64,000 nucleotides of DNA from Alphaproteobacteria bacterium. GTDB lineage: Bacteria > Pseudomonadota > Alphaproteobacteria > RF32 > CAG-239. The translations under genes were made by a program, and so were the position numbers. Below the pieces are notes generated by a model. The model saw nothing but the letters and a program-made list of their open reading frames with translations, made no database searches and was not told the DNA's origin. How positions within the stretch are numbered: position 1 is the stretch's first letter; each line of letters opens with the position of its first letter. Location of the stretch: positions 7,227-71,226 of the forward strand of contig JAZLAM010000022.1 in the NCBI GenBank assembly GCA_045613125.1, given 5' to 3'. This document shows positions 14,255-60,981 of this stretch, one piece after another.

Positions 14255-16000
14255 ATGTCTATAAATTTAGCAGTGGCAGATACAAACATTACTCACTTAA
14301 AACCACGCATAAGTGTAATTGGCGTTGGTGGTGGTGGCGGAAATGCCGTAAACAATATGATTTCAAAAAATCTCGAAGGTGTTGATTTTATCGTAGCCAA
14401 CACAGATTCTCAGGCTTTAACACACTCTTTAGCAAGTAAAAAAATTCAACTCGGACTTGAAATTACTCAAGGTTTAGGAGCCGGTGCTCGTCCGGAAATC
14501 GGAAAACTTGCTGCGGAAGAAGCCAGAAGCGAAATTGAAAAAGAACTAGAAGGCGCAAATATGGTCTTCATCACAGCCGGAATGGGCGGAGGAACAGGTT
14601 CTGGTGCTGCTCCGGTTGTGGCAAAAATTGCAAAAGAAAAAGGCGTTTTAACTGTGGGTGTTGTTACAAAGCCATTCTCTTTTGAAGGTAAGAAAAGAAT
14701 GGAAATAGCTGAAAATGCTTTAACAGAATTTACCAATGAAGTTGACAGTATTATAGTTATCCCAAACCAAAATTTATTCCGTATTGCCGATAAAAACACC
14801 ACATTAGCCGAAGCTTTTATTATGGCTGATGATGTATTATATTCCGGCGTTCGTTCAATTACAGATTTGATGATGATGCCGGGACTAATTAATTTAGATT
14901 TTGCTGATATCAAAAGCATTATGGAAGACAAAGGTAAAGCCATCATGGGCACCGGTGAAGCAGAAGGAGAAAACAGAGCTCGTATTGCTGCCGAACAAGC
15001 ACTTTCAAACCCGCTTTTGGACGATTGTTCAATGAAAGGAGCCAAAGGGGTCTTAATTAATATTACCGGCGGAAATGATATGACTTTGATGGAAATTGAT
15101 GAAGCAGCAAACATCATCAAAGAAGAAGTTGATGAAGACGCAAACATCATTTTTGGTTCAAGTTTTGACAACTCCTTAGGCGGAAAGATCAGAGTTTCTA
15201 TTGTTGTTACGGGAATTGAAAACAAAACAGGCTTCAAGGTTGCTTCAAGACAATCTGAAATAACATCATACATTGATGAAAGTTATGCAACTCCAACAGA
15301 TAATTTGATAGTTTCTTTAAACGAAGAAAACGCTGTTAAAACAATCACAAAGAACCTTCCGAACGCAGAAACTGATGATAAAACAATCGTTGAAGAAAAC
15401 ATTATTCCGACAGAATCTGATGCGGATTTAGACAACGACGAAGGATCTATTGATTTTTTGCCTCAAGAAACCGCTGAATTTGCTGCTTATTCCGATACAG
15501 AATATACCAAAGATAGCATCAATGATGTAGAAAGCTTTGATGATTTGGAAAAATCAATTGCAATATCTGATGTTCCTCAAGCAACAGCATTGTTTAATGC
15601 AATTATAAATAAACAGCCTACTACAGATAACAAAGAGGAAATTGAACCAGAAGCAGATTTAGATAGTTTTATTTTAGAAGATAAAGATATCTTTACACCA
15701 AAAACATCAATAAACATCATTGAAGAAGAGCCAGAATTGTTTCCTGAACAAGATAGTTTGATTTTTGACGGCTCAGAGCCTGTTAAAGAAGAAATCATTA
15801 TTGAGCCTGAAGAAAAAAAATTGAGCTTTATTGATAAGGTATTAGGCTTATCTCACGCCAGAAAGAATCGTAAAGAACAAATCAATGTTTCAGAAACTCA
15901 GGCACCACAGATGATATCTGAACCTATTGAAGATATCAGATTTTCAGTAGATGATGATAATGATAATTTGGATATTCCAACATTTTTAAGAAAAAAATAA
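14255..16000 (+). CDS. ftsZ: Cell division protein FtsZ with a long acidic C-terminal linker
   Basis: [13 protein letters not shown] tubulin signature. A ~250-aa Asp/Glu-rich linker ends in a conserved C-terminal peptide (DIPTFLRKK). This architecture is alphaproteobacteria-like. Confidence 0.95.
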
Positions 16001-16094: not shown

Positions 16095-16410
16095 CGAACA
16101 TCCATAACTGTCATCGCTCGATTGCAATAAGCAATCGTCAAGCGATCTTCAAATTAGTAATTAATCGGAAGATATTTTAAACTGTCACTCCTCCGAGCAA
16201 AGACACTTTTACTGTCACACCTCCGAACGAAGTGAGGTCAAGGGGTCTTCAAATTAGTAATTAATCGGAAAATATTTTAAACTGTCACCCCTCGTTTTTG
16301 TTAAGAAAACGTCAAGGGGGCTTCAAATCAGTAATTAATCGGAAGATGCCTTGACCAAACCTTACGGTTTGGAGGCATGACAATATTATATTTCCTTGCG
16401 GAAACGAACG
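16095..16410. repeat. Composite array of RPE-like palindromic modules
   Basis: The D module (gtcatcgctcgattgcaataagcaatcgtcaagcgatc) is followed by three copies of cttcaaat(t/c)agtaattaatcggaa(g/a)at interleaved with ttttaaactgtcac(t/c)cctc units. The end (ggaggcatgacaatattatatttccttgcgg) is the reverse complement of the 21.9-kb locus. Confidence 0.75.
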
Positions 16411-16461: not shown

Positions 16462-16489
16462 AAAAGAGGGGAAACCCCTCTTTTTTTTA
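16462..16489. terminator. Bidirectional terminator downstream of the giant pilin-like gene
   Basis: agaggggaaacccctct flanked by an A-run and a T-run. Confidence 0.6.
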
Positions 16490-19400
16490 CCATGGATCGT
16501 TATAATCCAAAGTCGGATCATTCAAACGTTCAATATAACTTTCGTTTGATCCAATCGTTCCGCCATCAGTACTATTATCTCTAGTGTTGTCCTCTCCGGT
16601 CTTAATATATCCTTGTCTAAAGTTATTAAGCTGATCATATTGGTCAACATATCTACTGCTATTGCCAGATTTAAATATATTAGTTCTGTCAAAGTAGCAA
16701 TATACTGTTGCATATGCTTCTATGGTTTTGGTCTGAACCGGGAACACATTCCAGTAATAAGCGTCATCCTGAATACCTTCAGCTCCCAATTTCCCTAAAA
16801 TCTCTTTATATTGGTTTCCCGGATAGACAAAGCCCATAATTGCAGACCAACCGACAAATTTAGAACCATCACACGATCTGTCTTTTGTCTCAGATTCCGG
16901 AGAGTGTTTTTCACAATCCCCTGTATGGCCATCTTCCTGTGGTTGAACCATACCTCTAAGTCTGGTGCTGTGTTGGAAATATAACGGTTTAGGACCATAT
17001 TTTGTACCATCAGAGTCACTATACCCTAAAAAGTATCTAGTCTCTGTTGATAGAGTTCCATCTTGGTTTGTGCCACCGGTTGCTACAGTCATCTGTTTAT
17101 ATTCTGGCTTAGCAATCGCTACTTCAGGATCCAAACCATTTATTCCACCACCAGTTGGGTCAGTAGTAAAACGTTTTTTAACATTACCTGGATTAAACGG
17201 GTGCACTTCCCCCTTACTTGGATCTAGCACATTAATACTGCTTGTTGCTTGAGCCATTTCAAAAGCTGCCGGTGTAAGGGTCATAAGTTTTGCATGCCCA
17301 GGAGGACATTGTGGTGCAGGCACAATTCCTAAAAACGGTGAAGCCCATCTCTTATTGCCTGTAAGGTTAACACCATCCCCATCTTCCACAATATCTTTGA
17401 CACCTTGTGCCGTAACTTGTCTAATACCACCTTTTTCAACTATTTCAGGTGTAATATAGCCGATATCAACATCATCTGCATATGTGTTGGTAACAACATA
17501 TATACCTTTGTTGATAAAGTCTGGCAAAATATCGCTCAAACGAGCTCCGCCTCTGGTTGTCAACTTGATATCATGCATCACAGACGTATACGCCGGATTT
17601 ACCATATAACGATCATAACCTAATTTTGATACCGCTGCATATCCATCGTTCAATCCCATGTTACTAATATGTTCATATACTTTAGCCCTAGCGCCATCTC
17701 CATAATAACTGTTATTACTATAGTCACCTGCATATCTGGGGGTTGCAATTGCGTAATTATCAGGATATTCTTCTATTATAGCATTAGAAACAAAACGGCT
17801 AGCTTCAATGTACCCCATACCGGTGTCTGCGACTTGGTCTCCTTCAATCAAATCTATATCAGGAACCTCTAACTCAATTGCACCACGGCGGATATATACA
17901 CTACCTTTAGTACCTTGAGCTTCTGTAGCATGCGGCCTCGGGTTAGGCCCACCAGATGTGTTTTCCACTTGCGTTAATTCGTCTGTAGAATAATCAACTT
18001 CCAGAATAGGAGTCATAATTTTATTATCTGTTGTGTCGTTCACATGAGAAATTAGCATCTTTTCATGATTAATTTCAACATTTGCCTCAGCATAAGGCAC
18101 ATCATTTTCTGTATTATTAGCATTTGTTCTATTAGGAACAACCTGAAACAATGTTGTTGGTGCCAACGACTGTATCACACCCAAAGAGTTTTGTTGTGTT
18201 GTCACATTCTGCATCACCCTAAAACCATGCGATTTAACTGTAACACTATCTGATTTCATACCAATTTTTTTCGAATCAAGAGTGGTTATTCCACCTTTTG
18301 TGTCAGCATCTATACTCAAAATATTCTTATCTGTACCCTCTGTGTTATCCTCTTGACCATGAATATTAAATTCGTTAGACTTTATATCAGTTGATTTAAC
18401 CCAAGCATCTTTACCAAAAGTGATGTTCTGAGCTGAAATATCAACGGTATTACCAGCTACCACATACTGTCCATCCTCATTTTCTTTAGAATATTGTCCG
18501 GTTAACGTAATTGCCCCATTTTGCAAAGAAACAACACCGTTTTCAGCATCCGTGGTATAAATATTAACAGCCCCACCTTCATTTTTTTCTGTATATATAT
18601 CAACCACATCATCACCTTGCAAAATAGCGTCTGTATCACCTAACTCTAACTTTGTTTTTCCTGTGTAGCCGACAATTCTTGTTTCATCAGGATCAATAAG
18701 CAGTCTATCTCTAGTTCCATCGTTTACTGTAACACCATCCTTGTTTGCTGTTAACCACCAATGGTCGCCTGGTTTACCCGTTCCTGACGAAACTGTAGAA
18801 TGACCGGCTTGCAGAGACTTAATCTTACCTGTTTCAGTACCAATTTGTTTAGCCTCCAAAGCCTCTCCTATATAAGCATCGCCATTAACTTTTAACATCA
18901 CATTGTTCATGTCGGATGAGATAATGTTATGAGTTGTGGTACCTGGAACTTGATCAGTATATCCTACTGATACCGCCTTCTTTAAATCAGACGTTCCGGT
19001 CACCGTAAGGTCAGCGTTTGCTTTTACACCTACACCGTCTTGAACCACAAGAAGTCCATCACTATTACTTTCTGTTGTTACCAATCTCACAACAGTGCTA
19101 GAAGCGTCAACACCGCTTTTTGCCAATTTCACACTGTTACCTGATGCATCAATATAGAATCCATCTTTTCCCGCATAAAAAGACTTACCATCTCCGGTTG
19201 CAACTTTCGTGTCGCCTACAACATCTAAAACGCCACCAATCCAAGCAGATTTTTCTCCAGCAAGCACCAAACCATCTGCTGTAACAGATTCCGGATTCTC
19301 TGTAGCACCTATAATCATCTTACCAACACCTAAGATGCTGCGCATTGACGTATCTGTAATATCACCGCCGGTAACACCACCCATATACAAATCTGCAGTC

Positions 19401-20080
19401 ATGGTGTTACGCCAAATTTCGTTCGGATCATCAGGTTGTGTCCTTTGTAAATATTTTTCATTTTCCAGAGCACCTGATGTTGCAGAGTTGATTGCTTCTG
19501 ACGAAGCTACCATAACAGAACCTTTATCACCGGTAAAACCACTGCTTGATAACTGATCTTTAGACAAGCTCCACACACCACCAACACCTTTTGCATCACC
19601 ACTGCCTGCAACATAACCACCATTACTTCCAACCATCGAAGCAATTCGGGCAGCACGCATTTCACCAATATCGGTTTCTTTAGGAAACTGGATAAACGCC
19701 GTAATAGAATCGGCAGATTTTTGGAGAACAATTTTCGGTTTACCGAAATTTTTCAAATTATCAAAAGAATATCCGTAAGGTAAATATCTTAACAACTCGG
19801 CATTCTCTATCCCAATCTCTTTATGTGCCGTTTCACTTCCAGATAGTTCTTCTTCCAAAATTTTCTGATAGTTAGCTGCCACATAATTATCCACTGCTTT
19901 AGAAAGTGTACGAACATGTGTTGCAGTGTTGATATCTTGCAACTCGCTGGTACGTTCAGCAGATTTTTTATATAAAGTTGGGGTAACTAAAGAAATCAGC
20001 GCCAACATAGCCATTGCCTCGACCATCATAGAACCGCCCTGACTTATCTTTTTTAATATATTTTTACGTATGTCAGTCAT
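16487..20080 (-). CDS. Giant (~1197 aa) pilin-like adhesin with a prepilin (class III) N-terminus and a beta-strand-rich body
   Basis: Start assigned to MTDIRKN, which has AGGAGA 8 nt upstream and overlaps the stop of the upstream gene. The N-terminus KKISQGG|SMMVEAMAMLALISLV has G(-1) and E(+5), like type IV prepilins. The body is Gly/Thr/Ser/Asp-rich and predicted beta-rich. Confidence 0.6.
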   Translation of the reverse strand: MTDIRKNILKKISQGGSMMVEAMAMLALISLVTPTLYKKSAERTSELQDINTATHVRTLSKAVDNYVAANYQKILEEELSGSETAHKEIGIENAELLRYLPYGYSFDNLKNFGKPKIVLQKSADSITAFIQFPKETDIGEMRAARIASMVGSNGGYVAGSGDAKGVGGVWSLSKDQLSSSGFTGDKGSVMVASSEAINSATSGALENEKYLQRTQPDDPNEIWRNTMTADLYMGGVTGGDITDTSMRSILGVGKMIIGATENPESVTADGLVLAGEKSAWIGGVLDVVGDTKVATGDGKSFYAGKDGFYIDASGNSVKLAKSGVDASSTVVRLVTTESNSDGLLVVQDGVGVKANADLTVTGTSDLKKAVSVGYTDQVPGTTTHNIISSDMNNVMLKVNGDAYIGEALEAKQIGTETGKIKSLQAGHSTVSSGTGKPGDHWWLTANKDGVTVNDGTRDRLLIDPDETRIVGYTGKTKLELGDTDAILQGDDVVDIYTEKNEGGAVNIYTTDAENGVVSLQNGAITLTGQYSKENEDGQYVVAGNTVDISAQNITFGKDAWVKSTDIKSNEFNIHGQEDNTEGTDKNILSIDADTKGGITTLDSKKIGMKSDSVTVKSHGFRVMQNVTTQQNSLGVIQSLAPTTLFQVVPNRTNANNTENDVPYAEANVEINHEKMLISHVNDTTDNKIMTPILEVDYSTDELTQVENTSGGPNPRPHATEAQGTKGSVYIRRGAIELEVPDIDLIEGDQVADTGMGYIEASRFVSNAIIEEYPDNYAIATPRYAGDYSNNSYYGDGARAKVYEHISNMGLNDGYAAVSKLGYDRYMVNPAYTSVMHDIKLTTRGGARLSDILPDFINKGIYVVTNTYADDVDIGYITPEIVEKGGIRQVTAQGVKDIVEDGDGVNLTGNKRWASPFLGIVPAPQCPPGHAKLMTLTPAAFEMAQATSSINVLDPSKGEVHPFNPGNVKKRFTTDPTGGGINGLDPEVAIAKPEYKQMTVATGGTNQDGTLSTETRYFLGYSDSDGTKYGPKPLYFQHSTRLRGMVQPQEDGHTGDCEKHSPESETKDRSCDGSKFVGWSAIMGFVYPGNQYKEILGKLGAEGIQDDAYYWNVFPVQTKTIEAYATVYCYFDRTNIFKSGNSSRYVDQYDQLNNFRQGYIKTGEDNTRDNSTDGGTIGSNESYIERLNDPTLDYNDPW

Positions 20081-20090
20081 ATTTTTTCTC

Positions 20091-21026
20091 CTAATCGTAA
20101 ATCTGCTGTATAGCATAAAAACAAGGATTATATCTATTATAACATCCTAGTTTTTTAAAATCCCTATCTTGTCGCACTGCTTCAAAAATCTTATGATATT
20201 GAAACTCCTGTTTCACTTGCGAATCGCCACCAACAAGTTCTAAAGCCCCGTCCAAACCACCTTCGGGGATTTCAACCTCGGGTGCTGTCACACTGTGGGG
20301 AGCATAAGCCGTAGGATTTGATCCGCTCAATCCGTCTCCGATGCTAACACCAGGCATCTCTGTGTCTAGGCCACCTTCAGGTAACTCTGCCTCAAGGCCA
20401 CCACCCGTAAAGTTATCATAGTTTTTAGCCATATATCCGCCACTTAAAATCAATTCTCCATTTTTATAATACGTATAGCCGAAACTTTTACCGAAACCTC
20501 TGGTTTTGGCCATATATCCTAAAAGATCTGCATTTGGCATATAAGTAGATATATTACGTAATCGCTGAGGAATTGGTGCATATGAAATCACATATATACC
20601 GGCAAACTCATTACTGCAACAGCTAACATAGTCATACGTAGTGCACCAATGGCTTTTATCGCCATCATTAAAACAATATACCTTACTAACCACATCAGCA
20701 TCCAGCGAATAGCCCACCGGCAAATATGGTTTCAAATCTTCTTCACTGATACTGCAATCTTCCAAAGTGGTTCCTTTTGCACAGAATGTACTATTAAAAC
20801 CATCTCCCGGAAAATATGACACGGCAGTGTGGCCTGTTTTAGATGTTGCTTTAGAATTAAAATAGTCTTTCACAGCATTATGCTGAGCAAAAAACTTTGT
20901 TACAGCAACACCGGCTTTTGTTTCCGCATGGACACGATCCAAATCTGCCCTAACGGAGATGTTGTACGAATATAAAATTGTAATAAATGTTGCAATTATT
21001 ACCCATAAATACATAGTTCTTCTCAC
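20091..21026 (-). CDS. Membrane-anchored hypothetical protein co-transcribed with the giant pilin-like gene
   Basis: N-terminal TM segment (LWVIIATFITILY) and a Cys-rich periplasmic domain. Its stop overlaps the RBS of the downstream gene. Confidence 0.45.
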   Translation of the reverse strand: MRRTMYLWVIIATFITILYSYNISVRADLDRVHAETKAGVAVTKFFAQHNAVKDYFNSKATSKTGHTAVSYFPGDGFNSTFCAKGTTLEDCSISEEDLKPYLPVGYSLDADVVSKVYCFNDGDKSHWCTTYDYVSCCSNEFAGIYVISYAPIPQRLRNISTYMPNADLLGYMAKTRGFGKSFGYTYYKNGELILSGGYMAKNYDNFTGGGLEAELPEGGLDTEMPGVSIGDGLSGSNPTAYAPHSVTAPEVEIPEGGLDGALELVGGDSQVKQEFQYHKIFEAVRQDRDFKKLGCYNRYNPCFYAIQQIYD

Positions 21027-21171
21027 GCAATATTCATATCATACTTCGCATATTAACACAGATTTTATTTAAAATCCAACATTTATGTTAAATATGGCAA
21101 AATATTCACATTTCTGTAACAGATGTGTATATTATATCATCATTGGGTAAATTTTTAATTAAAAAAACTCT

Positions 21172-21494: not shown

Positions 21495-21752
21495 TCAGAA
21501 CATCTCCTTACCTTTTTTTATCCACCTGTCCGAAAGCTTATTCACCGTTTTATGAGCTGAATCGAACAAAGCCTTACCAATTCCCAATTTAGGTGTCTTA
21601 ACAAAAGAATCTGCTAAATTTACAGCACCATTTAACACCACTTCGGCAGCACTTAAGCCATAATCGGCCAATTTCGCCGCAACTCCGGCTCCGACTAAGA
21701 CACCACCACAAGCCCCTTTTACACACTTTTTTACTTTATCATCATCTAACAT
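21495..21752 (-). CDS. Small Gly/Ala-rich hypothetical peptide (85 aa)
   Basis: GACGGVLVGAGVAAKLADYG glycine-zipper-like segment. Lys-rich C-terminus. Confidence 0.35.
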   Translation of the reverse strand: MLDDDKVKKCVKGACGGVLVGAGVAAKLADYGLSAAEVVLNGAVNLADSFVKTPKLGIGKALFDSAHKTVNKLSDRWIKKGKEMF

Positions 21753-21835: not shown

Positions 21836-22090
21836 TCTGCAAGGAATCGTCAAGAAAAATAACCAAAGTCATCGTCCGCTTAGGCAGAAAATAAAACCAT
21901 TGTCATGCCTCCAAACCGCAAGGAAATATAATATTGTCATGCCTCCAAACCGCTAGGTTTGGTCAAGGCATCTACCGATTTTTTTAATTATTTTACACCA
22001 CTTCCTATGATGGATTTTTTAAACTAATTTGAAGACCGCTTAACCTCGCTTTGCTTGGAGCGATGACAGCATTATTTTTCCGCTCGAAAC
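21836..22090. repeat. RPE-like palindromic repeat cluster
   Basis: Tandem copies of ttgtcatgcctccaaaccgc, the hairpin ccaaaccgctaggtttgg, and taatttgaagaccgc...ggagcgatgac modules. These are shared with the 16.1-, 59.8- and 61.9-kb loci. Confidence 0.75.
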
Positions 22091-24785: not shown

Positions 24786-24862
24786 GGGCGCTTAGCTCAG
24801 TTGGTTAGAGCAGGCCGCTCATAACGGTCTGGTCGTAGGTTCGAGTCCTACAGCGCCCACCA
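24786..24862 (+). tRNA. tRNA with CAT anticodon (elongator tRNA-Met, or tRNA-Ile2 by lysidine)
   Basis: Cloverleaf by hand. Acceptor GGGCGCT/AGCGCCC, D-arm GCTCAGTTGGTTAGAGC, anticodon loop CTCATAA, T-arm GTAGGTTCGAGTCCTAC, discriminator A and encoded CCA. G1-C72 rules out an initiator. Confidence 0.85.
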
Positions 24863-27579: not shown

Positions 27580-27641
27580 ATTTGCACCTAAAAGTATTCT
27601 TATTATATATACTTAGGTTTTATTTCTCAAAATAACAAGTT

Positions 27642-28100
27642 CTACAGCTTCAGATGCTTCAAAAAGGCATCGCAGCCTTCAACAATATCCCAATATGTCT
27701 CGTCAAAATTTCCAGTATACCAAGGATCTTTGATATTGCGAGGCTTGTTTGCAAAATCTAGCAAGCGATGAATTTTATTATCCGTATCAATACCAACGAT
27801 AGATTGTATATCTTCAATGTTGCTGTCATCCATCGCTAAAATATAGTCATAGTAAGCATAATCTTTTGGACGAATACGACGAGAATAATGTTCTTCAAAA
27901 GGCACATGCATAGATTTCAACATCTCACGCGTGCCATGATGAATGCCGGCATGACACATTTCATTATAGCTCTCTGTGGCGGCAGAATCAATTTCAAACT
28001 GATCAGACAAACCGCGTTCCTCAACCATTTGTTTAAAAACAAACTGCGCCATCGGCGACCGACATATATTTCCTAAACATACAAATAAAACTTTAATCAT
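27642..28100 (-). CDS. Low-molecular-weight protein tyrosine phosphatase (copy A)
   Basis: P-loop VCLGNICRSP (CX5R) at the N-terminus and a DPWYTG (DPYY-like) loop. ~90% aa identity to copy B at 45327-45791. Confidence 0.8.
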   Translation of the reverse strand: MIKVLFVCLGNICRSPMAQFVFKQMVEERGLSDQFEIDSAATESYNEMCHAGIHHGTREMLKSMHVPFEEHYSRRIRPKDYAYYDYILAMDDSNIEDIQSIVGIDTDNKIHRLLDFANKPRNIKDPWYTGNFDETYWDIVEGCDAFLKHLKL

Positions 28101-28116
28101 TGTTATTTTTTAACTC

Positions 28117-28800
28117 CTAAATACTTAGTAATTTTAACTCAAAATTTTGTTTTACTTGCTTCCAATTAGGCATTTTGATTGATAGTAGGTTATAAAAATC
28201 TTCTGTATGTCTATCATAATAAATATGGCATAACTCATGATAAATGACATAATCAATTGATTTTTTGCTAGCCTTTATTAATTCGGGATTCAAAACAATT
28301 TCGTGTTTTTTCAAATAGCTTCCCCAACGTTTATTAAGTTTTCTTATTTTTAATACTGGTTTTTCTACATCTGGAAAAGCCTTAATGCATTCGTTAAGAC
28401 GCTCATTGAAAATAATTTCTGCTCGTTTCACAAGCCACTCTTGAAATGCTTTATTTATTTCATCAATCTTTTGAGGTGCAGATGATAAAACATAAATTTT
28501 ATTATTAGATAGCTTTACAACATTTTTAAGAGCCGCTTTTTCAATTATAACCTGATATTGACGTCCAAGGTAAAGAGCAGAACTTCCTGATTCATAAATT
28601 TTATTTTCAGGAGCATTAAATTGCTTAAAATATGATAATTGCTTATCAATCCATAATGTTTTTCTTTTGATAAAATTATCAATTTCAAAATCTTTTGCTT
28701 GAATTGGAGCTTTTATAATTATTCGAAAATCAGGATAAACCTCCGCAGATAAAGATTTCCTGTCTTCTTTAATTATTCTAAAGTCATAATTTTCAAACAT
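28117..28800 (-). CDS. YgjP-like (DUF45/WLM) zinc metallopeptidase associated with type I restriction-modification
   Basis: HELCH (HExxH) motif near the C-terminus. Its start abuts the hsdR stop, as is typical of YgjP partners of HsdR. Confidence 0.6.
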   Translation of the reverse strand: MFENYDFRIIKEDRKSLSAEVYPDFRIIIKAPIQAKDFEIDNFIKRKTLWIDKQLSYFKQFNAPENKIYESGSSALYLGRQYQVIIEKAALKNVVKLSNNKIYVLSSAPQKIDEINKAFQEWLVKRAEIIFNERLNECIKAFPDVEKPVLKIRKLNKRWGSYLKKHEIVLNPELIKASKKSIDYVIYHELCHIYYDRHTEDFYNLLSIKMPNWKQVKQNFELKLLSI

Positions 28801-31800
28801 TAGAGCATATCCTTATTTTGAACAGCCAAATTCCATGCAGTTTGTGCAATTTGCTCAACAACTGATGCAGATAAATCTTCTTCAACCTCATCAAACAAAT
28901 AATCTTCAATAGCAAAAAGAATGTCTCTTTTTACACTTGTGTTATTTTGAAAATCTACAACTTTTTTCGATTTGATAATATCAACTATGTGTTCAACAAT
29001 TTCACCATATCCATCGCCTGTGGATTTGAAAAAGTCTTTAATATTGCGATAAAATGGGTGATAAATCTTTACAGCTCTAATTTTTTCAGGAATATCACTA
29101 TCAACATAATCCGTAACATTTTTTTGATAATCTTTAGCTTGGTTAAGCAAAGCTTCTAAATCTTCTTTTTTTGCATTTTTCAAATCTTTAAGCAATTTAT
29201 CAATTAACTCGCTAAATTTACCATAAAAAGCCTCATCTTGATGATATTTTTCTTGAATAACCTTTTTGGTTTGAGCGAGTATTGCATCAGCTTTTGACTT
29301 ATCTGATAAGCCATTTTTTTGATCTTCAATATATTGGTTAAATTCATACATATTAGATAAACTGATTTCTTTTGAAAGCACCTCAACATCTTTTGCGGTA
29401 ACATATTTATCCAACAATTTCAAAATCTGGTCTTTATATTTCGAAAAATCAACTTTTTCAGCCATAGCTAACTGTGTTGTTTTTTTAATTTCAATAAATC
29501 TTTTCAAGTCTTTTTTATATGTCAGTAGGTCTTCTGTATTTATTTTCTCATGAAAATCATACAACGAATAACAAACCGAAAATTGCTTTATAAATTTATT
29601 TACATCATCATAAAAAGCTTCTCTTTCTTTTTCATGATCCTTCAAAAACTCAATATAAGCATTGGTGTTGTTAACATCTTTGATATTTCTAAACACATCA
29701 TGCAGACGTTCAAAAATACTCTTCAACACAAAAATCTGGCTATCAGCATCTAACAATGCATTTTCAATATCTTCAGGCGCATAGTTAGAAAACAACTCTA
29801 AAGCATTTTTAAGGTTTTTAGCATTTTTAGAGTAGTCAACAATCAAACCGGCTGTTTTACTTTGTTTACCTGCATCACCATCAAATACACGATTAACCCT
29901 TGCAATTGCTTGTAATAAGTTATGGTCTTTTAATTGCTTTGCCAAATATAATGCAGTATCACGAGGAGCATCAAAACCAGTCAATAATTTATCAACTACA
30001 ATGATGAGTTCACAACCTTCAGGATTTTTCTTATAATCTTGAATTATTTGCTTTTCTCTTGTTTCCAAAGAACCATATTTATGTTTTTGCTCTGCTAAAT
30101 ATTCGGTAATTGCTTTTTTATGTGTAGCATTTACATCATCTTTCCCTTCATCAGCTAATGTATCAGAAATAACAACTTCAGAATTAATACATCCAAGCAT
30201 ATCCAAAGAATTTTTAAACATAACAGCAGCATATTTACTCGGAGCAACAAGCTGACCTTTTAATCCTGTATCCTTAAAGTTTTTCATAAAATGATCATTA
30301 ACATCTAAAGCTATCATTTCAATACGTTGAGATGTTTCTTCCAAAACAGAGTTTGATATACATTTTTTAGCAAAGTCCTTACGTTCACTCTCCGAAAATT
30401 TTGAAGCAAGTCTTTCATAAAATTTATCAGCAATCGCATCAATTTTCTGGTCAACAAAGCGTCCTTGATAAATAAGAGGCAATACAGCACCGTCTTTTTC
30501 TGCTTCTGATATTGTATATTCATCAATTAAGCCACCAAATTTTTGAATAGATTCAGACTTTGAAGCAACTTTGCCTTTCAAACGTTCGGGAACTTTTTTC
30601 ATTAAAGGTGTTCCGGTAAAGGCAATCTGACAAGATCTAGGCAACATTTTGTTCATCATTGCATTAGCATCACCACCTTGTGTTCTGTGTGCTTCATCAA
30701 TCAAAACAAAAATGTTATTATCATTATCAACAAAATCTGTCGGTTTATCAAACTTATGAACTAATGTTGTAATAACATCTAATGTTTTAGATTTAATTTT
30801 TTTAACCAAATCTGCGCATGATGTTGCTTGTTGAACACCTTTTTTGATATTGCAAGCTGCAAATGTATCTCTAATCTGAATATCAAGGTCTGTTCTGTCT
30901 GTTACAACAATAACTCTTGGATTGTTAACGGTTTCAATTAAGTTTTTAACCAACATAACCATAGTTAAAGACTTTCCGCTACCTTGTGTATGCCAGATAA
31001 GTCCACCATGACGTTTACCATTTTCATGTTGATTTTGAATTTTTGCTATTGTCTTTTTAATAGCAAAATATTGCTGATAGCGCGTAACTTTCTTAATTCC
31101 ATTATCATAAATGATAAAGTTTCTAACCAAATCAAGCAAACGTGTAGGCTCTAACAGACTATAAATTCCTCTATCTTGAGCTGACGGAGTTTCTTTTTCA
31201 CATTGATTATAAGAATATCTTGATAAATCTGATGCAATTTTCTTAACAACAGCTGTATCAACTGGTTTATTTATACTTTCTAACACTTTTTGCTCATAAG
31301 TGTCTGTTGCATTTTTTTCTTTCCAAACTGAATAAAACTCAAATGGAGTGAGCATTGTTCCATATTTTATTTCATTAACATTGGTTGCAATCAATATTTG
31401 TGGGAACAAAAAGAACTTTGGTGTTTGCGTATATTTTTGGTTTCTTATCATCTGATGAATAGCCTCATCAACCAAAACAGATGCTTTTTTGCACTCAATA
31501 ACTGCAAACGGAATACCATTTACAAACAAAACAATGTCCGGTCTGCGATTTTGATCTTCTTCAATTTCAAATTCAGCCACCACATGAAACATATTTTTTT
31601 CTGGCTCATCCCAATTTATAAACCTTAATTGTGGAGATGTTTTTTTGCCATCAATAATTTCAGGAACAGATACACCACTAAGCAAATTAGAAAAAATAAT
31701 TTCCGAAGCTTTGACCACACCATCATCAAGTTTTATTTTCTCTAATCCAAAAATAGCCTCATCAATACTTTTATCTGATATCTCAGATGGATTTATTTCT

Positions 31801-32006
31801 CGCAAGGCTTTGATTGCAATATCACGCAAAATATATTGGCTTTTGCTATCACGATAATTATCAACCTCATGTCTTGGAATATAGGTATACCCCAAGTTAA
31901 TAAGCTGCAAAATCGCAGGAATTTGCGAACTATTAGCTTCATCAAAATCAGGAAGAATGTGGTGTGTAGTCATAGTATTACTCCGAAAATTCCTTATTTT
32001 TTTCAC
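28800..32006 (-). CDS. hsdR: Type I restriction enzyme R subunit
   Basis: N-terminal nuclease region, then SF2 helicase motifs (TQGSGKSLTM, LIDEAHRTQ). 1068 aa. Confidence 0.9.
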   Translation of the reverse strand: MKKIRNFRSNTMTTHHILPDFDEANSSQIPAILQLINLGYTYIPRHEVDNYRDSKSQYILRDIAIKALREINPSEISDKSIDEAIFGLEKIKLDDGVVKASEIIFSNLLSGVSVPEIIDGKKTSPQLRFINWDEPEKNMFHVVAEFEIEEDQNRRPDIVLFVNGIPFAVIECKKASVLVDEAIHQMIRNQKYTQTPKFFLFPQILIATNVNEIKYGTMLTPFEFYSVWKEKNATDTYEQKVLESINKPVDTAVVKKIASDLSRYSYNQCEKETPSAQDRGIYSLLEPTRLLDLVRNFIIYDNGIKKVTRYQQYFAIKKTIAKIQNQHENGKRHGGLIWHTQGSGKSLTMVMLVKNLIETVNNPRVIVVTDRTDLDIQIRDTFAACNIKKGVQQATSCADLVKKIKSKTLDVITTLVHKFDKPTDFVDNDNNIFVLIDEAHRTQGGDANAMMNKMLPRSCQIAFTGTPLMKKVPERLKGKVASKSESIQKFGGLIDEYTISEAEKDGAVLPLIYQGRFVDQKIDAIADKFYERLASKFSESERKDFAKKCISNSVLEETSQRIEMIALDVNDHFMKNFKDTGLKGQLVAPSKYAAVMFKNSLDMLGCINSEVVISDTLADEGKDDVNATHKKAITEYLAEQKHKYGSLETREKQIIQDYKKNPEGCELIIVVDKLLTGFDAPRDTALYLAKQLKDHNLLQAIARVNRVFDGDAGKQSKTAGLIVDYSKNAKNLKNALELFSNYAPEDIENALLDADSQIFVLKSIFERLHDVFRNIKDVNNTNAYIEFLKDHEKEREAFYDDVNKFIKQFSVCYSLYDFHEKINTEDLLTYKKDLKRFIEIKKTTQLAMAEKVDFSKYKDQILKLLDKYVTAKDVEVLSKEISLSNMYEFNQYIEDQKNGLSDKSKADAILAQTKKVIQEKYHQDEAFYGKFSELIDKLLKDLKNAKKEDLEALLNQAKDYQKNVTDYVDSDIPEKIRAVKIYHPFYRNIKDFFKSTGDGYGEIVEHIVDIIKSKKVVDFQNNTSVKRDILFAIEDYLFDEVEEDLSASVVEQIAQTAWNLAVQNKDML

Positions 32007-35870: not shown

Positions 35871-36917
35871 TTAATACTCCTCCACAATTTCCCAATGACC
35901 GCCTTTGTCTGGACCGATACGACGGAGCTGATTATTGTTTTTCAAATTGGTTATTTGTTTAGCTATTGCACGTCTTGATATTCCAAGAGTTTCAGCCATC
36001 TCGGTTGTTGTGATTTTTGGATTTTGTGCAATTAACTCTAAAATTTTCTGTGAACTTTTCTGTGAACTTTTCTGTGAACTTTTTTCTTCTGTGGTACTCA
36101 CATCTTTAATCTGCATTTCGCGATTGTCCAAGAGATTAGTTTCATCTAAAAGCAAGTTTCCAAAGAACTTGTTTAAGAATTCCATTGTATAAGGAATGTC
36201 TTTTTTAAGGTTTTGATAGTTAGCACGAACAAGCGCATTACGGAAATATTTAGCATATTTTTCAAATATGTCGTTATTAGTTTCAAAACCTAAAGTATAA
36301 AGATATTTAATCACAAAAACCGCGGTGGTTCTGGTGTTACCTTCGCCAAAAGGATGTATCTGCCAAACTCCTGATATAAACTTTGCTAAATGCTCAACCT
36401 TTTGTTTGTTTGAAAGCCCTTGATAATTAAATTTCTTCTCTTGAGCAAAATCATAATCCAAAGTTTCTTGAATACTGTCCGAACGGCCATAAATAACCGT
36501 ATCACCATTTAAGATAGGTTCTTTTTTGGTAATATCATAAGTGCGAATTTTACCGGTAATTTCATCTTTTAAGATACCTGTAAATAAAGCCTTGTGAATA
36601 GAAAGGAGTTCAACAGGGCTAAATGAAAAAGTGTGTGTACTCAATAGTTTTGTGATACGAGCAGAAACCTCGTCAGCTTCTTTTTCATTGTGTTCTTGCA
36701 CAGTTTTTGCCGGATTTTGCTTATAATAACGAGCAATTTCTTCATTGGCCTCATCAATGGAAATTTTGCCTTCAATATTATCTTTAGCAACATCTATCAG
36801 ATATTTTGAAGGAGTTAACCCGTCAACTTGTTGCAAACCGATAGCAACACGCCAATTTTCTGCCTTTTTATATTTTTCAGGCTCATTTTGCTTTTTATAT
36901 TCTTCAAAATGCTCCAT
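35871..36917 (-). CDS. Fic/Doc family protein with a C-terminal winged-HTH, embedded in the type I restriction-modification operon
   Basis: Variant Fic motif HPFGEGNTRTT (HPFx[DE]GN[GT]R). SSQKSSQKSSQK linker. C-terminal HTH (TTEMAETLGISRRAIAKQI). Confidence 0.7.
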   Translation of the reverse strand: MEHFEEYKKQNEPEKYKKAENWRVAIGLQQVDGLTPSKYLIDVAKDNIEGKISIDEANEEIARYYKQNPAKTVQEHNEKEADEVSARITKLLSTHTFSFSPVELLSIHKALFTGILKDEITGKIRTYDITKKEPILNGDTVIYGRSDSIQETLDYDFAQEKKFNYQGLSNKQKVEHLAKFISGVWQIHPFGEGNTRTTAVFVIKYLYTLGFETNNDIFEKYAKYFRNALVRANYQNLKKDIPYTMEFLNKFFGNLLLDETNLLDNREMQIKDVSTTEEKSSQKSSQKSSQKILELIAQNPKITTTEMAETLGISRRAIAKQITNLKNNNQLRRIGPDKGGHWEIVEEY

Positions 36918-36920
36918 CTA

Positions 36921-38423
36921 TTACACTCCTAATTCTTTGAGGTATTCATTCATCTTGGCTTGAACATCTTGAAGCTCTTTTTCAAGTGAAGCGATATCAG
37001 ACTTAACTTTTGCTAAATCAACTTCTTCTTCCTCTTCAAAAGTATCTACATAGCGAGGGATGTTGAGGTTAAAGTCGTTTTCGCTAATTTCATCAAAGGT
37101 TGCGATATGCGAATATTTTTCAATTTCTTTGCGATTTTTATATGTATCAACGATTTTATTGATATGCTCATCTGAAAGAGTGTTTTGGTTTTTACCAGGA
37201 ACAAACTCTTTGCTTGCATCAATAAACAAAACATCTTTTTTGTTTTCATTGACCCCGCCTTGTTCACGAGATCTATCAAAAACAAGCATTGCGACAGGAA
37301 TACCGGTTGTTTGGAATAAGCTATTAGGCAAGCCAATTACAGCATCAAGAATATTTTCTCTAATTAATGCTTCTCTAATTCTTCCTTCTGATGAACCACG
37401 GAATAATACACCATGTGGAACAATAACTGCTACACGACCGGATCTTGGTTTTGCTGTTGCAATCATATGTGAGATAAATGCATAATCTCCTTTACTTGCT
37501 GGAGGCATACCTCTATCAAAACGATTGTAAATATCATTTTCTAAATGTTTTTCACCCCATTTATCTAATGAAAATGGCGGGTTTGCAACGATTACATCAA
37601 ATTGCATTAAATGGTCATTTTCCTTCAACAATGGGTTGTTTAAGGTGTCACCCCATTCAATGCGAGCAGAATCTTGTCCATGCAAAAACATATTCATACG
37701 AGCAAGGTTATAGGTTGCACCGGTTTTTTCTTGTCCATATAAAGCATAATCTTTTGAACCTTGAGAAGAAACTTCTTCACCGGCTAACAATAACAGGCCA
37801 CCTGAACCACAAGCTGGGTCACAAATTCTATCACCTGGTTTAGGCATAGCTAATTTTGCTAACAAAGCAGACAGAACTTTTGGTGTATAAAATTCTCCCG
37901 CTTTCTTGCCTGCATCTGAACCAAAACGTTCTATCAGATACATATAAGCATTACCAAGCAAATCACCCTCAACATCAGACAAATCAACCTGACTAAAATC
38001 ATTAATAAGATCTCTAATCATTTTATTTCGTTGACTAGTTTGGCCTAAAATAGCTTCATTGTTAAAATCGACGGTAAAAATCCCTTTTAAATGAGCCTCG
38101 TTAGCATCTTCAATTTTGCGAAGTGCTTTATTTATTAGCTCACCAACATTGTCTGCATTTTGTTGTTCGTAGATATCATAAAAACTAGCACCTTCAGGCA
38201 ACACAAAACGAGCATTTTTAAGACGAAGTTCAATACGTTCTTTATCATTTCCATAGCGTTCTTGAAGTTTTTTTACTTCAGCTTGCTTAATATCGCTCAT
38301 ATATTTATAAAACAAAAAGGCTAAAATATAGTCTTTGAACATACCGCCATCGACCACACCGCGCGCAGAATCTGCTGCACTCCATAATAGGTTATTTAAT
38401 TTGTCTTGCGTAATTTTAGCCAT
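36921..38423 (-). CDS. hsdM: Type I restriction-modification N6-adenine methyltransferase subunit
   Basis: HsdM N-terminal domain, an AdoMet-binding motif, and NPPF (VIVANPPFS). Confidence 0.9.
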   Translation of the reverse strand: MAKITQDKLNNLLWSAADSARGVVDGGMFKDYILAFLFYKYMSDIKQAEVKKLQERYGNDKERIELRLKNARFVLPEGASFYDIYEQQNADNVGELINKALRKIEDANEAHLKGIFTVDFNNEAILGQTSQRNKMIRDLINDFSQVDLSDVEGDLLGNAYMYLIERFGSDAGKKAGEFYTPKVLSALLAKLAMPKPGDRICDPACGSGGLLLLAGEEVSSQGSKDYALYGQEKTGATYNLARMNMFLHGQDSARIEWGDTLNNPLLKENDHLMQFDVIVANPPFSLDKWGEKHLENDIYNRFDRGMPPASKGDYAFISHMIATAKPRSGRVAVIVPHGVLFRGSSEGRIREALIRENILDAVIGLPNSLFQTTGIPVAMLVFDRSREQGGVNENKKDVLFIDASKEFVPGKNQNTLSDEHINKIVDTYKNRKEIEKYSHIATFDEISENDFNLNIPRYVDTFEEEEEVDLAKVKSDIASLEKELQDVQAKMNEYLKELGV

Positions 38424-44056: not shown

Positions 44057-45127
44057 TTGAAAGGATTAGTTATGCCTAATATGAGTGATATAGTGATTAC
44101 ACCAGATATTCTTCGTAAAATAGCTGAAATAGATACATTTAAGGGTTCGTGGAATAGCGGTGGTATAAAAATTGAACCAGAACAATTAAAGACAATGAAA
44201 AGAATTGCTACCATTGAGTCTATTGGTTCATCTAATCGCATAGAGGGTAATAAATTAAACGATATAGATGTTGAAACAGTATTTAACAATATAACAAAAA
44301 AATCTTTTCAAACACGTGATGAGCAAGAAGTTGCAGGATATGCAGATTTACTAGCTACAATCTTTGATAGTTACCAAGATATCCCTTTATCAGAGAACTA
44401 CATTCGTCAATTACACAAAATTTTATTAAGTTACTCAACAAAAGATGAGCGTCATAGAGGTGAGTATAAGAAAGATTCAAATAGAGTTGCTGCTTTTGAT
44501 GCAGATGGTAATGAAATAGGTACAATATTTGAAACAGCTACTCCATTTGATACTCCTCGTTTGATGCAAGAGTTAGTTGATTGGACTAATGTTAATTTTA
44601 ATGATGGGTACTTTCATCCTATTATCACAATAGGTGTATTTGTTGTTCACTTTTTATCAATACACCCTTTTACAGATGGTAATGGGCGCTTATCACGAGC
44701 ATTAACAACAATGTTATTGCTTAAAAACGGATATAACTATATGCCATATGCATCTATGGAATCAATTATCGAAGCAAATAAAGAAGGTTATTATAGGGCT
44801 TTAAGAGCAACTCAAAAAACAATTTGGACAGATAAGGTTAATTATGAACCTTGGCTAACATTCTTTATTACCTCATTACAAAAACAAAAACGTCATCTAG
44901 AAGAGAAAATTACCAAAGTATCTGGCACAACAAGATATAATAAAACAGAAGAAAGTATAATTGCTTTATTTGATGAAAAGTCATCTTGGAGTGTATTAGA
45001 GATAGCTCAAGAACTTAATAAAAACAACGAAACCATCAAAAAGAATGTTCAAAATCTTGTGAAAAAAGACATTTTAGAAAAACAAGGTTCAACCAAAGGA
45101 ACATACTATATTTTGAAAAAGCAATAG
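44057..45127 (+). CDS. fic: Fic family protein (AMPylase-type)
   Basis: Canonical motif HPFTDGNGRLSRAL. C-terminal winged-HTH-like region. Confidence 0.8.
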   Translation: MKGLVMPNMSDIVITPDILRKIAEIDTFKGSWNSGGIKIEPEQLKTMKRIATIESIGSSNRIEGNKLNDIDVETVFNNITKKSFQTRDEQEVAGYADLLATIFDSYQDIPLSENYIRQLHKILLSYSTKDERHRGEYKKDSNRVAAFDADGNEIGTIFETATPFDTPRLMQELVDWTNVNFNDGYFHPIITIGVFVVHFLSIHPFTDGNGRLSRALTTMLLLKNGYNYMPYASMESIIEANKEGYYRALRATQKTIWTDKVNYEPWLTFFITSLQKQKRHLEEKITKVSGTTRYNKTEESIIALFDEKSSWSVLEIAQELNKNNETIKKNVQNLVKKDILEKQGSTKGTYYILKKQ

Positions 45128-45295: not shown

Positions 45296-45326
45296 ATTAC
45301 TCATTTCTTTAATTTTTCACATTTAA

Positions 45327-50898: not shown

Positions 50899-51510
50899 TT
50901 GATGAAATTATTTAAGAGCAATCAATATGGAAGAAGCATGGTTGAGATGTTGGGAGTTTTGGCCATCATCGGTGTCTTGTCCGTTGGCGGTATCGCCGGT
51001 TATTCTAAAGCTATGTATAAGCAAAAAATGAACAAATCTGTAGATATTGTTTCTAATATTTTGATGGGAATAAATGAATTGTTATTAAAAAACCCTAATG
51101 AAGATATATTTATAGACGGCGTTCAAAATGCAGTAAAATTAGGCATACTGGATAAATCATTGTGCGATAGCTCTGATATATGTAGACTTCCTATCGGTGC
51201 TGAAATATTGATTAATTTTACTAAATCATTCGGTATAATTTTTAAAGAAGGTAATCGTATAAATCTTTGTATTGATTTTTTATCACATCATTGGGAAACT
51301 GCATTACCGATTAATTATAACGGTATAAGCGCTGTAACTTATAAAGGTGATCAGAATTTCATATATTCATCAACTGCACTTAACACTTATATTGGAATTA
51401 AAACAAGCTATACATTAGCTGATATCAAAGAGGCTTGTAATAATGCTTGTGATAATGACTATCATTGTTATGTTTATTTTTATACTTGGGATGAAACAAA
51501 TAGTTATTAA
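50899..51510 (+). CDS. Type IV pilin-like protein (class III signal)
   Basis: Short basic leader, then G|RSMVEMLGVLAIIGVLSVGGIAGYSKAM with Glu at +5. Variable C-terminal domain with paired Cys residues. Confidence 0.7.
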   Translation: MMKLFKSNQYGRSMVEMLGVLAIIGVLSVGGIAGYSKAMYKQKMNKSVDIVSNILMGINELLLKNPNEDIFIDGVQNAVKLGILDKSLCDSSDICRLPIGAEILINFTKSFGIIFKEGNRINLCIDFLSHHWETALPINYNGISAVTYKGDQNFIYSSTALNTYIGIKTSYTLADIKEACNNACDNDYHCYVYFYTWDETNSY

Positions 51511-60348: not shown

Positions 60349-60981
60349 TTAGTAGTATTTCCAAGCAACTGCGTTGCCAGATGATGTATCGCTACAATAA
60401 GTAAGAGCGTTCTTAACAGACATCGGTGTGTCGTTACCCTGAGTACCACCAGGTGTAGCATAACCTGAACCACCTGCATCGCCTACATATACCTCTGCTA
60501 ACAAACCAGCAGCATTACCATCTGATGCAGCAGCAACAGCTATCAAACCGGAAGCTTGACCTGAACCCCAGTCACCTGTTGCGATGGTTACGCATGCTTC
60601 TTGAGAAAGACCGCCATATTCAATAGTGAAAGCTCTTGTTGCATTATCTGTACCGGTATTAAGAGCTGCAGCTGCAATTGTAACTTCACCACCGAAAGCA
60701 TTAGTAATTGTTGAATTAGATGCACTTGTAAACATATCATTTGGTACAATACCAAACTTTTTAGCATCTTCGTTCGTCAAACCATCATAATCACCTTGAG
60801 CAGAGAACAATGTTCTGATGTTGGCTACCAACATAGAAACTTGGTCTGTAGTTTTGTTGATTTTGAATTTGTTCATAGCTTTTGAATAGCCGGCAATACC
60901 ACCAACGGATAACACACCGATAATTGCCAATACGCCGAGCATTTCAACCATTGAACGACCAGATTCATTTGTATATTTCAT
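60349..60981 (-). CDS. Type IV pilin-like protein (class III signal)
   Basis: MKYTNESG|RSMVEMLGVLAIIGVLSVGGIAGYSKAM is identical over ~29 residues to the pilin at 50899. The C-terminal domain is divergent and Gly/Ala/Thr-rich. Confidence 0.7.
   Translation of the reverse strand: MKYTNESGRSMVEMLGVLAIIGVLSVGGIAGYSKAMNKFKINKTTDQVSMLVANIRTLFSAQGDYDGLTNEDAKKFGIVPNDMFTSASNSTITNAFGGEVTIAAAALNTGTDNATRAFTIEYGGLSQEACVTIATGDWGSGQASGLIAVAAASDGNAAGLLAEVYVGDAGGSGYATPGGTQGNDTPMSVKNALTYCSDTSSGNAVAWKYY

Follow-up and report, generated by a model that had tools for sequence, protein, structure and literature searches.

A family of very large gut alphaproteobacterial proteins with a prepilin-type N-terminus and a conserved pilin-like partner

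Modular pilins, in which a pilin module carries additional domains, are reported to be widespread: more than 1,200 such proteins in 264 architectures, the largest of 860 amino acids, have been collected in a survey that relied on the signature IPR012902 together with a recognized extra domain (PMC8179133). Large pilin-like tip proteins are also known, with two reports describing CpaL/TadG, CofB, and TcpB as such (PMC13533445; 10.1101/2025.02.12.637803). [quoted passage not shown] Docking by C-terminal strand donation or β-strand addition is described as shown for PilY1/PilC and CpaL and predicted for MshQ, a protein of ~1,200 residues (PMC13533445), and precedents for apical subunits without Glu5 appear in the literature (PMC8179133; PMC13533445; 10.1101/2025.02.12.637803). 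Here we analyzed a 64,000-nucleotide stretch of DNA (the window) from an alphaproteobacterium of the RF32 lineage (contig JAZLAM010000022.1, positions 7,227 to 71,226), in which one gene encodes a 1,197-residue protein with a prepilin-type N-terminus (the giant protein) and the gene directly upstream encodes a smaller membrane-anchored protein (the partner). An earlier reading of the same DNA, made from the letters alone (the original prediction), had proposed that the two genes form an operon for a β-rich adhesin-like protein beginning as a type IV pilin. Our literature search uncovered nothing relevant on pili or flagella of RF32-type gut Alphaproteobacteria, or on the term "giant pilin". 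Coordinates of all features are collected in Table 1.

The giant protein begins with MTDIRKNILKKISQGG/SMMVEAMAMLALISLVTPTLY, where the slash marks the predicted cleavage; this N-terminus consists of a basic leader of 16 amino acids, Gly at position –1, Glu at position +5, and a hydrophobic helix, and a longer reading, MTDIRKNILKKISQGG/SMMVEAMAMLALISLVTPTLYKKSAERT, takes in about 21 hydrophobic residues. The prepilin-like junction is QGG/SMMVEAMAMLALISLV, and the mature protein would start as S1-M-M-V-E5-AMAMLALISLVTPTLY, with a Glu column that is invariant in alignments A1 and A2. Gly–1, Glu+5, and the hydrophobic helix were present in all 120 close homologs (31–100% identity), and Gly–1 and Glu+5 were kept in 129 of 135 distant cluster representatives, the remaining six being without the usual N-terminal sequence; overall identity of the homologs that keep the motif falls to ~27–40%. 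Leaders in the family are mostly of 10 to 13 residues, and the +1 residue is Ser, Gly, or Thr. Residues 21 to 58 of the giant protein are almost entirely invariant, and column identity to the window protein is ~60–72% across the NH2-terminal module (N-module), compared with 7–39% in the middle region. Reading of the sequence beyond the hydrophobic segment revealed no AxA-type signal peptidase I site, the segment running directly into ...LYKKSAERT. Given that conservation is so strong and that a charged residue is fixed inside the hydrophobic stretch, an ordinary signal peptide or membrane anchor can be argued against. The giant protein conforms to the motif-based definition of a type IV pilin (a basic leader with Gly–1, and Glu+5 with an α1N helix), and its class III (prepilin-type) signal architecture, which the original prediction had recognized in the single window sequence, is the best-conserved part of the family.

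We scanned the six-frame translation of the window for G-x4-E with 10 or more hydrophobic residues after it. The pattern occurred four times, compared with ~0.25 expected in shuffled sequence (~16-fold over chance), and three of the four occurrences were N-termini of open reading frames (ORFs) after a short basic leader, namely those of the giant gene and of two pilin genes of 210 and 203 amino acids. Of 16 positions in the mature N-termini, 7 are shared by the giant protein and these window pilins, and the rest show conservative changes. The claim that all three genes share one architecture was thus borne out by the scan, and the 210-residue product in addition matches PilS and Bundlin at ~1e-15.

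Structure models were obtained with AlphaFold2, for the giant protein from an alignment of 55 sequences. The mean predicted local distance difference test score (pLDDT) was 57.7, which is poor overall, with residues 50 to 190 reaching 79–90. Residues 2 to 78 were modeled as a helix, and strands were predicted at residues 86–89, 116–122, 125–132, 154–157, 163–165, and 189–193, the order after the long helix being a short helix, a hairpin (116–122 and 125–132), another helix, and further strands. In the model, this helix-plus-sheet order resembles that of a pilin. Profile comparison of the N-module with the PilS/Bundlin pilin family by hhalign gave E = 3e-3 over 56 columns, with the leader and helix aligned. 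The structural check suggested with the original prediction therefore had a divided outcome, with a pilin-like helix and sheet for the N-module and a fold of low confidence for the body.

A profile search of 1.84 billion cluster representatives, with E ≤ 1e-3 as the family cutoff, yielded 651 clusters at 50% identity, 290 of them with E ≤ 1e-30. The best 150 of these clusters were mostly of 900 to 1,470 amino acids, a few fragments aside, and 135 of the 150 were new. All family members are annotated as "hypothetical". No part of the giant protein matched Pfam, NCBIfam, or PHROGs, 42 family members likewise gave nothing meaningful in Pfam and NCBIfam, and the family profile had no match at E ≤ 10 among all sequences of the PDB. 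The named sources of homologs are all uncultured Alphaproteobacteria, from feces, colon, rumen, and human-gut metagenome-assembled genomes. These sources, and the presence in the window of Pta-AckA and other free-living functions, lend no support to the intracellular lifestyle that the original prediction had assumed. The window FtsZ (14255–16000 (+), 581 amino acids in total) has a long acidic C-terminal extension, and an ankyrin-repeat protein is encoded at the window end (63408–63986 (–)), with ankyrin-repeat genes recurring in related loci; these features may have prompted that assumption but do not establish an intracellular lifestyle.

The mechanical ORF listing opens the giant gene at an ATG at 20116 (16487..20116 (–), 1,209 amino acids). 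Given that an AGGAG lies 7 nucleotides upstream of the ATG at 20080, that all homologs begin at the equivalent Met (MTDIRK..., MKTQYK...), and that NCBI product P0001 is the 1,197-residue form, we assign the true start to ATG 20080 (MTDIRKN...) rather than to 20116. The possibility raised with the original prediction, that the true start lies downstream of the pilin-like segment, is countered by the same ribosome binding site and homolog starts. For the partner gene, an alternative GTG start at 21026 would add MRRT, and a four-codon extension (MRKxM) is open in the closest relatives as well. The most likely start is nevertheless predicted to be MYLWV (21014), because 33 of 36 database homologs begin there, with MYLWV or MYIWV; of the other three, one has an MRKA extension and two are truncated N-terminally. 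The junction between the genes reads gatTAGGAGaaaaaatATG, and the stop codon of the partner gene overlaps the ribosome binding site of the giant gene, as the original prediction had stated, which gives the junction the geometry of translational coupling. In each of the 16 annotated loci (L001–L010 and the distant lineages L013–L017), the partner gene is the one immediately upstream of the giant gene, and it has this position in 57 of 67 further occurrences, across 103 loci, that have enough upstream DNA. These observations support the view that the two genes are one unit with translational-coupling geometry. Sigma-70–like sites around the pair were not more numerous than expected by chance in a consensus scan. 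The two small genes just upstream of the pair had no family match in Pfam, NCBIfam, or PHROGs, and L001–L003, the three closest loci, are the only ones in which they accompany the pair.

The partner is 307 amino acids long in the window and 238 to 310 elsewhere. It starts directly with a hydrophobic helix (MYLWVVIATFITILYSYNLSVR...), with no leader, no Gly–1, and no Glu+5. The window copy contains eight Cys residues, six of them at conserved positions that include a C-terminal pair, in keeping with the description of the partner in the original prediction as a Cys-rich membrane-anchored protein. The AlphaFold2 model (predicted template modeling score of 0.70; pLDDT of 78 overall and mostly >90 outside an insertion) has a helix at residues 2 to 54 and, after it, a sheet of six strands. 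Its elements follow one another as in the giant N-module, the two share the motif YLP[YV]GY, and hhalign aligned the partner family with the giant N-module at E = 8e-4 over 90 columns. From this modeled architecture, we infer that the partner may be a paralogous pilin-like protein. The model had no match in the PDB with Foldseek, the family profile had one chance match only among all PDB sequences, and the partner matched nothing in Pfam, NCBIfam, or PHROGs, with 36 partner-family members giving nothing meaningful in Pfam or NCBIfam. The insertion, of ~60 amino acids at residues 201 to 262 of the window copy, is rich in Gly, Glu, and Pro (GGLEAELPEGGLD...PEGGLDGALELVGGD) and was modeled as disordered; it is common to one close homolog only, the other 34 being without it.

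The body of the giant protein is as rich in Gly, Thr, and Asp as originally noted (G 10.9%, T 11.1%, D 9.5%, and V 9.7% for residues 216 to 700), and residues 216 to 720 were modeled as short strands, mostly at low pLDDT. Close relatives that are 93–100% identical over the first 200 residues fall to 15–50% in blocks of the middle region and C-terminal third, with many blocks of residues 216 to 720 at 25–50%, a mosaic divergence that, judged from the alignments, is typical of exposed, diversifying surface modules. The data thus support a body that is β-rich and hypervariable, as expected of an exposed module. Self-BLAST of five family members revealed no internal repeats. Of the β-helical adhesin that the original prediction had envisaged, the β-rich body stands; the β-helix is not supported, given the low-confidence model, the lack of repeats, and the absence of any adhesin, autotransporter, or two-partner secretion match in Pfam or of any significant PDB match. 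Foldseek comparison of the full-length model with the PDB gave no significant match, the top entries being phage tail fibers (T4 gp34, the Bd2133 fiber, and Gp37-type) with TM-scores of 0.04–0.13 and root mean square deviations (rmsd) of 20–90 Å across PDB and BFVD. Tail-fiber matches in the BFVD viral library, at E values of 1e-3 to 1e-2 but with a TM-score of ~0.06 and very large rmsd, were not accepted as evidence of homology. At most, the model looks like the monomer of a fibrous β protein.

Conservation rises again toward the C-terminus. Residues 860 to 1130 were modeled at pLDDT 50–88, and three of the four Cys residues of the C-terminal third are invariant or nearly so. These four Cys and the six conserved in the partner indicate a putatively extracytoplasmic location. 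The protein ends in a tail whose terminal Trp is shared by 248 of 252 family members; the R, L, D, P, L, and Y residues of this tail are near-invariant. The tail was modeled at low confidence, and its conservation makes it a candidate docking or donor peptide.

On the basis of these results, we consider it fairly probable that the 1,197-residue protein belongs to a type IV filament as a giant, modular minor pilin. A prepilin peptidase would remove the 16-residue leader after Gly16, and the mature helix with Ser1 and Glu5 would sit in the inner membrane and enter a filament of Bundlin/PilS-type pilins, for which the 210-residue pilin is a candidate building block. The giant subunit would be incorporated first and stay at the pilus tip, since a body of ~1,000 residues cannot fit in the pilus shaft. 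There it would serve as an assembly primer and as an exposed, strain-variable ligand-binding or adhesive module, as do TcpB/CofB and CpaL/TadG. The co-translated partner would probably be the other tip-complex member, serving as a cap or as an assembly partner anchored in the membrane, and its lack of Glu+5 can be likened to apical subunits of the GspK/PilX type. In a speculative step, the ...RLNDPxLKYxxPW tail might dock onto one of the two pilin modules. A more elaborate form of this proposal, which we regard as unlikely, is that IVb-like pili bear a self-contained tip complex of a new type, made of two proteins. Beneath or beside a leaderless, peptidase-independent cap with a pilin fold there would be a processed subunit of 1,200 residues; the tail of this subunit would fold back or reach across so as to contribute a strand, whether in cis or in trans, to one of the two pilin sheets, and its body would form a long, possibly trimeric, tail-fiber–like probe. 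If this complex exists, it would contain the largest pilin family described and would be an abundant, strain-variable surface organelle of human-gut Alphaproteobacteria.

Several findings weigh against assigning the giant protein to the minor pilins. Neither the window protein nor any of 42 family members gave a match at E ≤ 1 with the curated models PF07963 and TIGR02532, and the +1 residue of the family (Ser, Gly, or Thr) departs from the Phe, Met, or Leu that is usual. At 10–25%, the probabilities of the hhalign similarities are low, and the composition of the hydrophobic helix accounts for part of these similarities. The fold of the body has no assignment, and its position and variability are the only grounds for deducing adhesion. 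Pfam scans of ~65 window ORFs detected no gene for a prepilin peptidase, assembly ATPase, platform protein, or secretin, and scans for Walker-A (G-x-TGSGK[ST]T) and A24 (G-x-GD-x-K) motifs gave no match in either the window or the 103 related loci (1.5 Mb). The pilin genes stand alone among housekeeping genes, and never beside assembly genes, in every context examined (the window and loci L002, L007, L011, L012, and L018–L023). With regard to the curated models, PF07963 and TIGR02532 also score the neighboring genuine PilS/Bundlin pilins below cutoff, so these models are insensitive to the motif of this lineage. With regard to the machinery, the searches covered 64 kb of the source genome and 1.5 Mb of related loci, and they also found none in the neighborhoods of four pilin homologs and five giant-gene homologs; a type IV machinery, if present, would be encoded elsewhere in the genome. 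The PilS/Bundlin pilin family comprises at least 7,980 clusters at 90% identity, one of which bears the NCBI name "type 4 pilus major pilin". That thousands of pilin genes persist and retain their class III motifs intact is an indirect argument for the existence of a prepilin peptidase and an assembly system in these organisms. As an aside, the family has a nearly invariant mature N-terminus, RSMVEMLGVLAIIGVLS, with an Arg at +1 that is unusual for a pilin.

A type IV filament tip subunit could also have a body that is not an adhesin. The body might instead mainly initiate or license assembly, serve as a mechanosensor or as a plug for secretion or a pseudopilus, or form a trimeric tail-fiber–like contact device, and the filament might be of the Tad type or resemble a type II secretion system instead of consisting of PilS/Bundlin pilins. 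Tad systems are common in Alphaproteobacteria, and such a subunit would mirror CpaL/TadG, in which the middle region is partly dispensable for piliation. The 42 family members, however, gave no match to TadE/Tad (PF07811, PF13400) or vWA domains, and the only pilins nearby are of ~200 residues and of the IVb type, not Flp. Phage tail fibers being the best structural matches of the low-confidence body is in line with a tail-fiber–like device, but the scores given above provide no evidence of homology, and the strong mosaicism between strains is more easily reconciled with a surface exposed to ligands or immunity than with a primer of purely structural function. We regard a body without adhesive function as improbable. 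A somewhat smaller probability is attached to the view that the giant protein is not a pilin at all but carries an uncleaved signal anchor, forming together with the partner a fiber that is tethered to the inner membrane, lies in the periplasm or spans the envelope, and is independent of type IV machinery. The lack of that machinery in all DNA examined and the silence of the curated pilin models are as expected on this account, as are the same architecture in a partner that has no cleavage motif and the location of the pair, in some distant lineages, beside fliL and fliM and not beside pilus genes. It leaves unexplained, however, why Gly–1 and a charged Glu within the hydrophobic segment are kept across a family of 651 clusters, and why bona fide PilS/Bundlin pilins encoded in the same genome have this motif and a mature N-terminus that is similar; the flagellar neighborhood, moreover, is limited to one sublineage and is divergently transcribed. 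Should the carrier genomes prove to be without type IV machinery, the assignment as a pilin would fall, and the conserved Gly–1 and Glu+5 would need a new explanation.

It is highly improbable that the pair derives from a phage or mobile element and was carried into the chromosome as fiber genes. Local GC content is 0.39–0.40, compared with ~0.33, the genomic context of the pair differs between lineages, the Foldseek matches are weakly tail-fiber–like, and inverted copies of a ~95-nucleotide repeat bracket a 5.6-kb block containing the pair. The rise in GC content is attributable to the composition rich in Gly, Ala, Thr, and Asp, however, and none of the four genes of the block matched PHROGs. 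No phage or integrase genes are adjacent, and throughout a deep family the pair keeps together as one conserved unit surrounded by housekeeping genes. The bracketing repeat is absent from 17 related loci, for which reason we rejected a mobile element as the main explanation of the block, and it also occurs beside an unrelated pilin gene. The minor pilin assignment remains the one that we favor.

Table 1. Features of the giant-gene locus and related elements in the window (window coordinates).
Feature	Coordinates	Strand	Remarks
Giant pilin-like gene	16487..20080	(–)	1,197 amino acids plus stop; 100% match to NCBI product P0001
Leader peptide, residues 1–16 (MTDIRKNILKKISQGG)	20033..20080	(–)	Basic, ends with Gly–1; predicted prepilin-peptidase cut between G16 and S17
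Pilin-like module, residues 17–215	19436..20032	(–)	α1N helix SMMVEAMAMLALISLVTPTLY (Glu+5), amphipathic α1C, YLPYGY motif, small β-sheet
Hypervariable, indel-rich, Gly/Thr/Asp/Val-rich β region, residues 216–720	17921..19435	(–)	Column identity 7–39%, many insertions; presumed exposed shaft
C-terminal region, residues 721–1184	16529..17920	(–)	Invariant blocks YDRYMVNPAYTSVMHDIKLTTRGGARLSDILPDFINKGIYV, PAPQCPPGH, and YATVYCYFDR; Cys 925, 1056, 1070, and 1128
Near-invariant C-terminal tail RLNDPTLDYNDPW	16490..16528	(–)	Motif R-L-[ND]-D-P-x-L-K-Y-x-[ED]-P-W, last 13 residues
Partner gene	20091..21014	(–)	307 amino acids from MYLWV; in ORF listing 20091..21026, 311 amino acids
Junction of partner stop and giant-gene ribosome binding site	20088..20093	(–)	TAG 20093–20091 overlaps AGGAG 20092–20088; ribosome binding site 7 nucleotides before ATG
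Candidate operon promoter, best sigma-70–like match upstream of partner	21131..21158	(–)	TTAAAA-16-TATAAT, TG extension; consensus scan only
Small gene, 106 amino acids	21172–21492	(–)	Just upstream of pair; own promoter-like site
Small gene, 85 amino acids, Gly/Ala-rich, probably membrane-associated	21495–21752	(–)	Just upstream of pair; own promoter-like site
Orphan type IVb-like major pilin gene, 210 amino acids, MKYTNESG/RSMVEMLGVLAIIGVL	60349..60981	(–)	Pfam PilS 3.8e-15, Bundlin 7.2e-15
Second orphan pilin-like gene, 203 amino acids, same mature N-terminus	50899..51510	(+)	Motif scan; weak N_methyl and prepilin-peptidase-dependent-protein matches
~95-nucleotide repeat	16345–16381	(+)	
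~95-nucleotide repeat	21936–21972	(–)	Partial extra half at 21899–21919
~95-nucleotide repeat	59763–59799	(–)	
~95-nucleotide repeat	60129–60165	(–)	

In all contexts seen, the pair sits among housekeeping genes. The window also contains ftsA, ftsZ, and other cell-division and murein genes, the gene for an EttA-like ABC-F protein, and lepA, dnaX, recR, lexA, and pta-ackA. A pilin gene lies within 10 kb of the giant gene in only a few loci; given the high frequency of pilin genes in these genomes, such proximity was not counted as evidence. In a distant sublineage (L013, 7091–14330; L017, 6137–14436), the genes divergent from the pair are flagellar (fliL, fliM, DUF6468, and a MgtE_N/FliG-like gene), and the pair is followed by a third conserved gene on the same strand, which encodes 241 to 252 amino acids with an ordinary Sec signal peptide and is absent from the window. 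Very large ORFs of 1,615 to 1,840 amino acids were found a few kilobases from pilin genes in three related loci (L007, 1422–6944; L021, 15586–20430; L023, 6533–11617), that in L007 having a hydrophobic, signal peptide–like N-terminus.

The ~95-nucleotide repeat is intergenic and structured, with the core GATGCCTTGAC-N16-GAGGCATGAC, and is present in four full copies, with none expected by chance. Its inner stem covaries between copies (CCAAACC/GGTTTGG versus CGATTCC/GGAATCG). In addition to the two inverted copies that bracket the 5.6-kb block, two others lie just 3' of the 210-residue pilin gene. The repeat matched no Rfam family. It could be an element resembling repetitive extragenic palindromes or miniature inverted-repeat transposable elements (REP/MITE-like), a small RNA, a terminator, or a shared regulatory element.

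Elsewhere in the window, an apparent integrated island at ~26600–46900 contains a type I restriction-modification system (HsdR, 28800–32006; HsdS; HsdM, 36921–38423), genes for Fic plus helix-turn-helix proteins (35871–36917 and 44057–45127), a large serine recombinase gene (40817–42445), and a DUF2924 gene. The island is flanked by duplicated low-molecular-weight phosphotyrosine phosphatase genes (27633–27932 and 45324–45623) that are 82% identical, and a tRNA gene (24786–24859) is located near it.

The specificity of type IV pili is often attributable to the tip, and the present family, a common one in gut metagenomes of humans and animals, goes unseen by Pfam, NCBIfam, and pilin surveys based on InterPro. 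If its members are true tip pilins, a pilin module can carry ~1,000 to 1,400 residues, beyond the published maximum of 860. The pairing of a giant subunit with a leaderless partner bears on models in which tip complexes license filament assembly, and the giant protein is a candidate strain-variable colonization factor for poorly known, uncultured gut Alphaproteobacteria.

The original prediction had considered a giant pilin fusion unusual and had suggested comparison with PilY1 and minor pilin families; for PilY1, TcpB/CofB, and TadG/CpaL alike, this comparison did not reveal homology. [quoted passage not shown] TcpB and CofB have an N-terminal pilin module that resembles the major pilin, carry β-rich extra domains at the tip, and act as assembly initiators, again according to these reports (PMC5207764; PMC8179133; PMC13533445), and the likeness extends to the companion pilins of the window, which are of the Bundlin/PilS (IVb) type. 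The giant protein is two to three times larger, however, and had no sequence or fold match with CofB or TcpB when its profile was compared with PDB sequences and its model with the PDB by Foldseek. Its gene, unlike those for TcpB and CofB, is not in a pilus operon beside the major pilin. Whereas TCP and CFA/III have a single minor pilin that forms a homotrimer, the giant gene is always paired with a leaderless pilin-like gene.

The resemblance to CpaL/TadG lies in the predicted tip location as the first subunit, in the position of the Caulobacter gene outside the main pilus cluster, and in the conservation profile and invariant tail; it is a resemblance of design only, not homology. Unlike TadG/CpaL, the giant family is without a Tad or TadE domain (PF13400, PF07811) or a vWA domain, as judged with Pfam in 42 members, and the giant protein keeps Glu+5, is of ~1,200 rather than ~600 amino acids, and is associated with IVb-like pilins rather than Flp. 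PilY1/PilC and MshQ offer a parallel in that a tip protein of ~1,000 to 1,200 residues with a conserved C-terminal peptide goes together with a small pilin without Glu+5 (PilK/GspK-type). They are nonpilins with a β-propeller, whereas the giant protein itself bears the prepilin signal, and the partner is without any leader, unlike apical minor pilins of the PilK/GspK type; Pfam gave no match to the PilY1/PilC family (Neisseria_PilC) in the window or in 42 members.

The modular pilins PilB and PilC of Streptococcus sanguinis have the same design as the giant protein, with a pilin module carrying grafted modules that are expected to be exposed at the tip (PMC8179133). The giant family differs from the modular pilins in exceeding the maximum of 860 amino acids and in having no recognized signature in either part, which is why surveys of the IPR012902 type cannot see it. 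The original view of the fusion as unusual thus holds for its size, its fold, and its obligate partner and does not hold for the principle, given that modular and large tip pilins have already been reported (PMC8179133; PMC13533445; 10.1101/2025.02.12.637803). The giant family, which is very large and unannotated, is best described as part of a known theme, that of modular or tip minor pilins, and what is new in comparison with the known tip pilins is only its size, a body of no recognized fold, and an obligate leaderless pilin-like partner.

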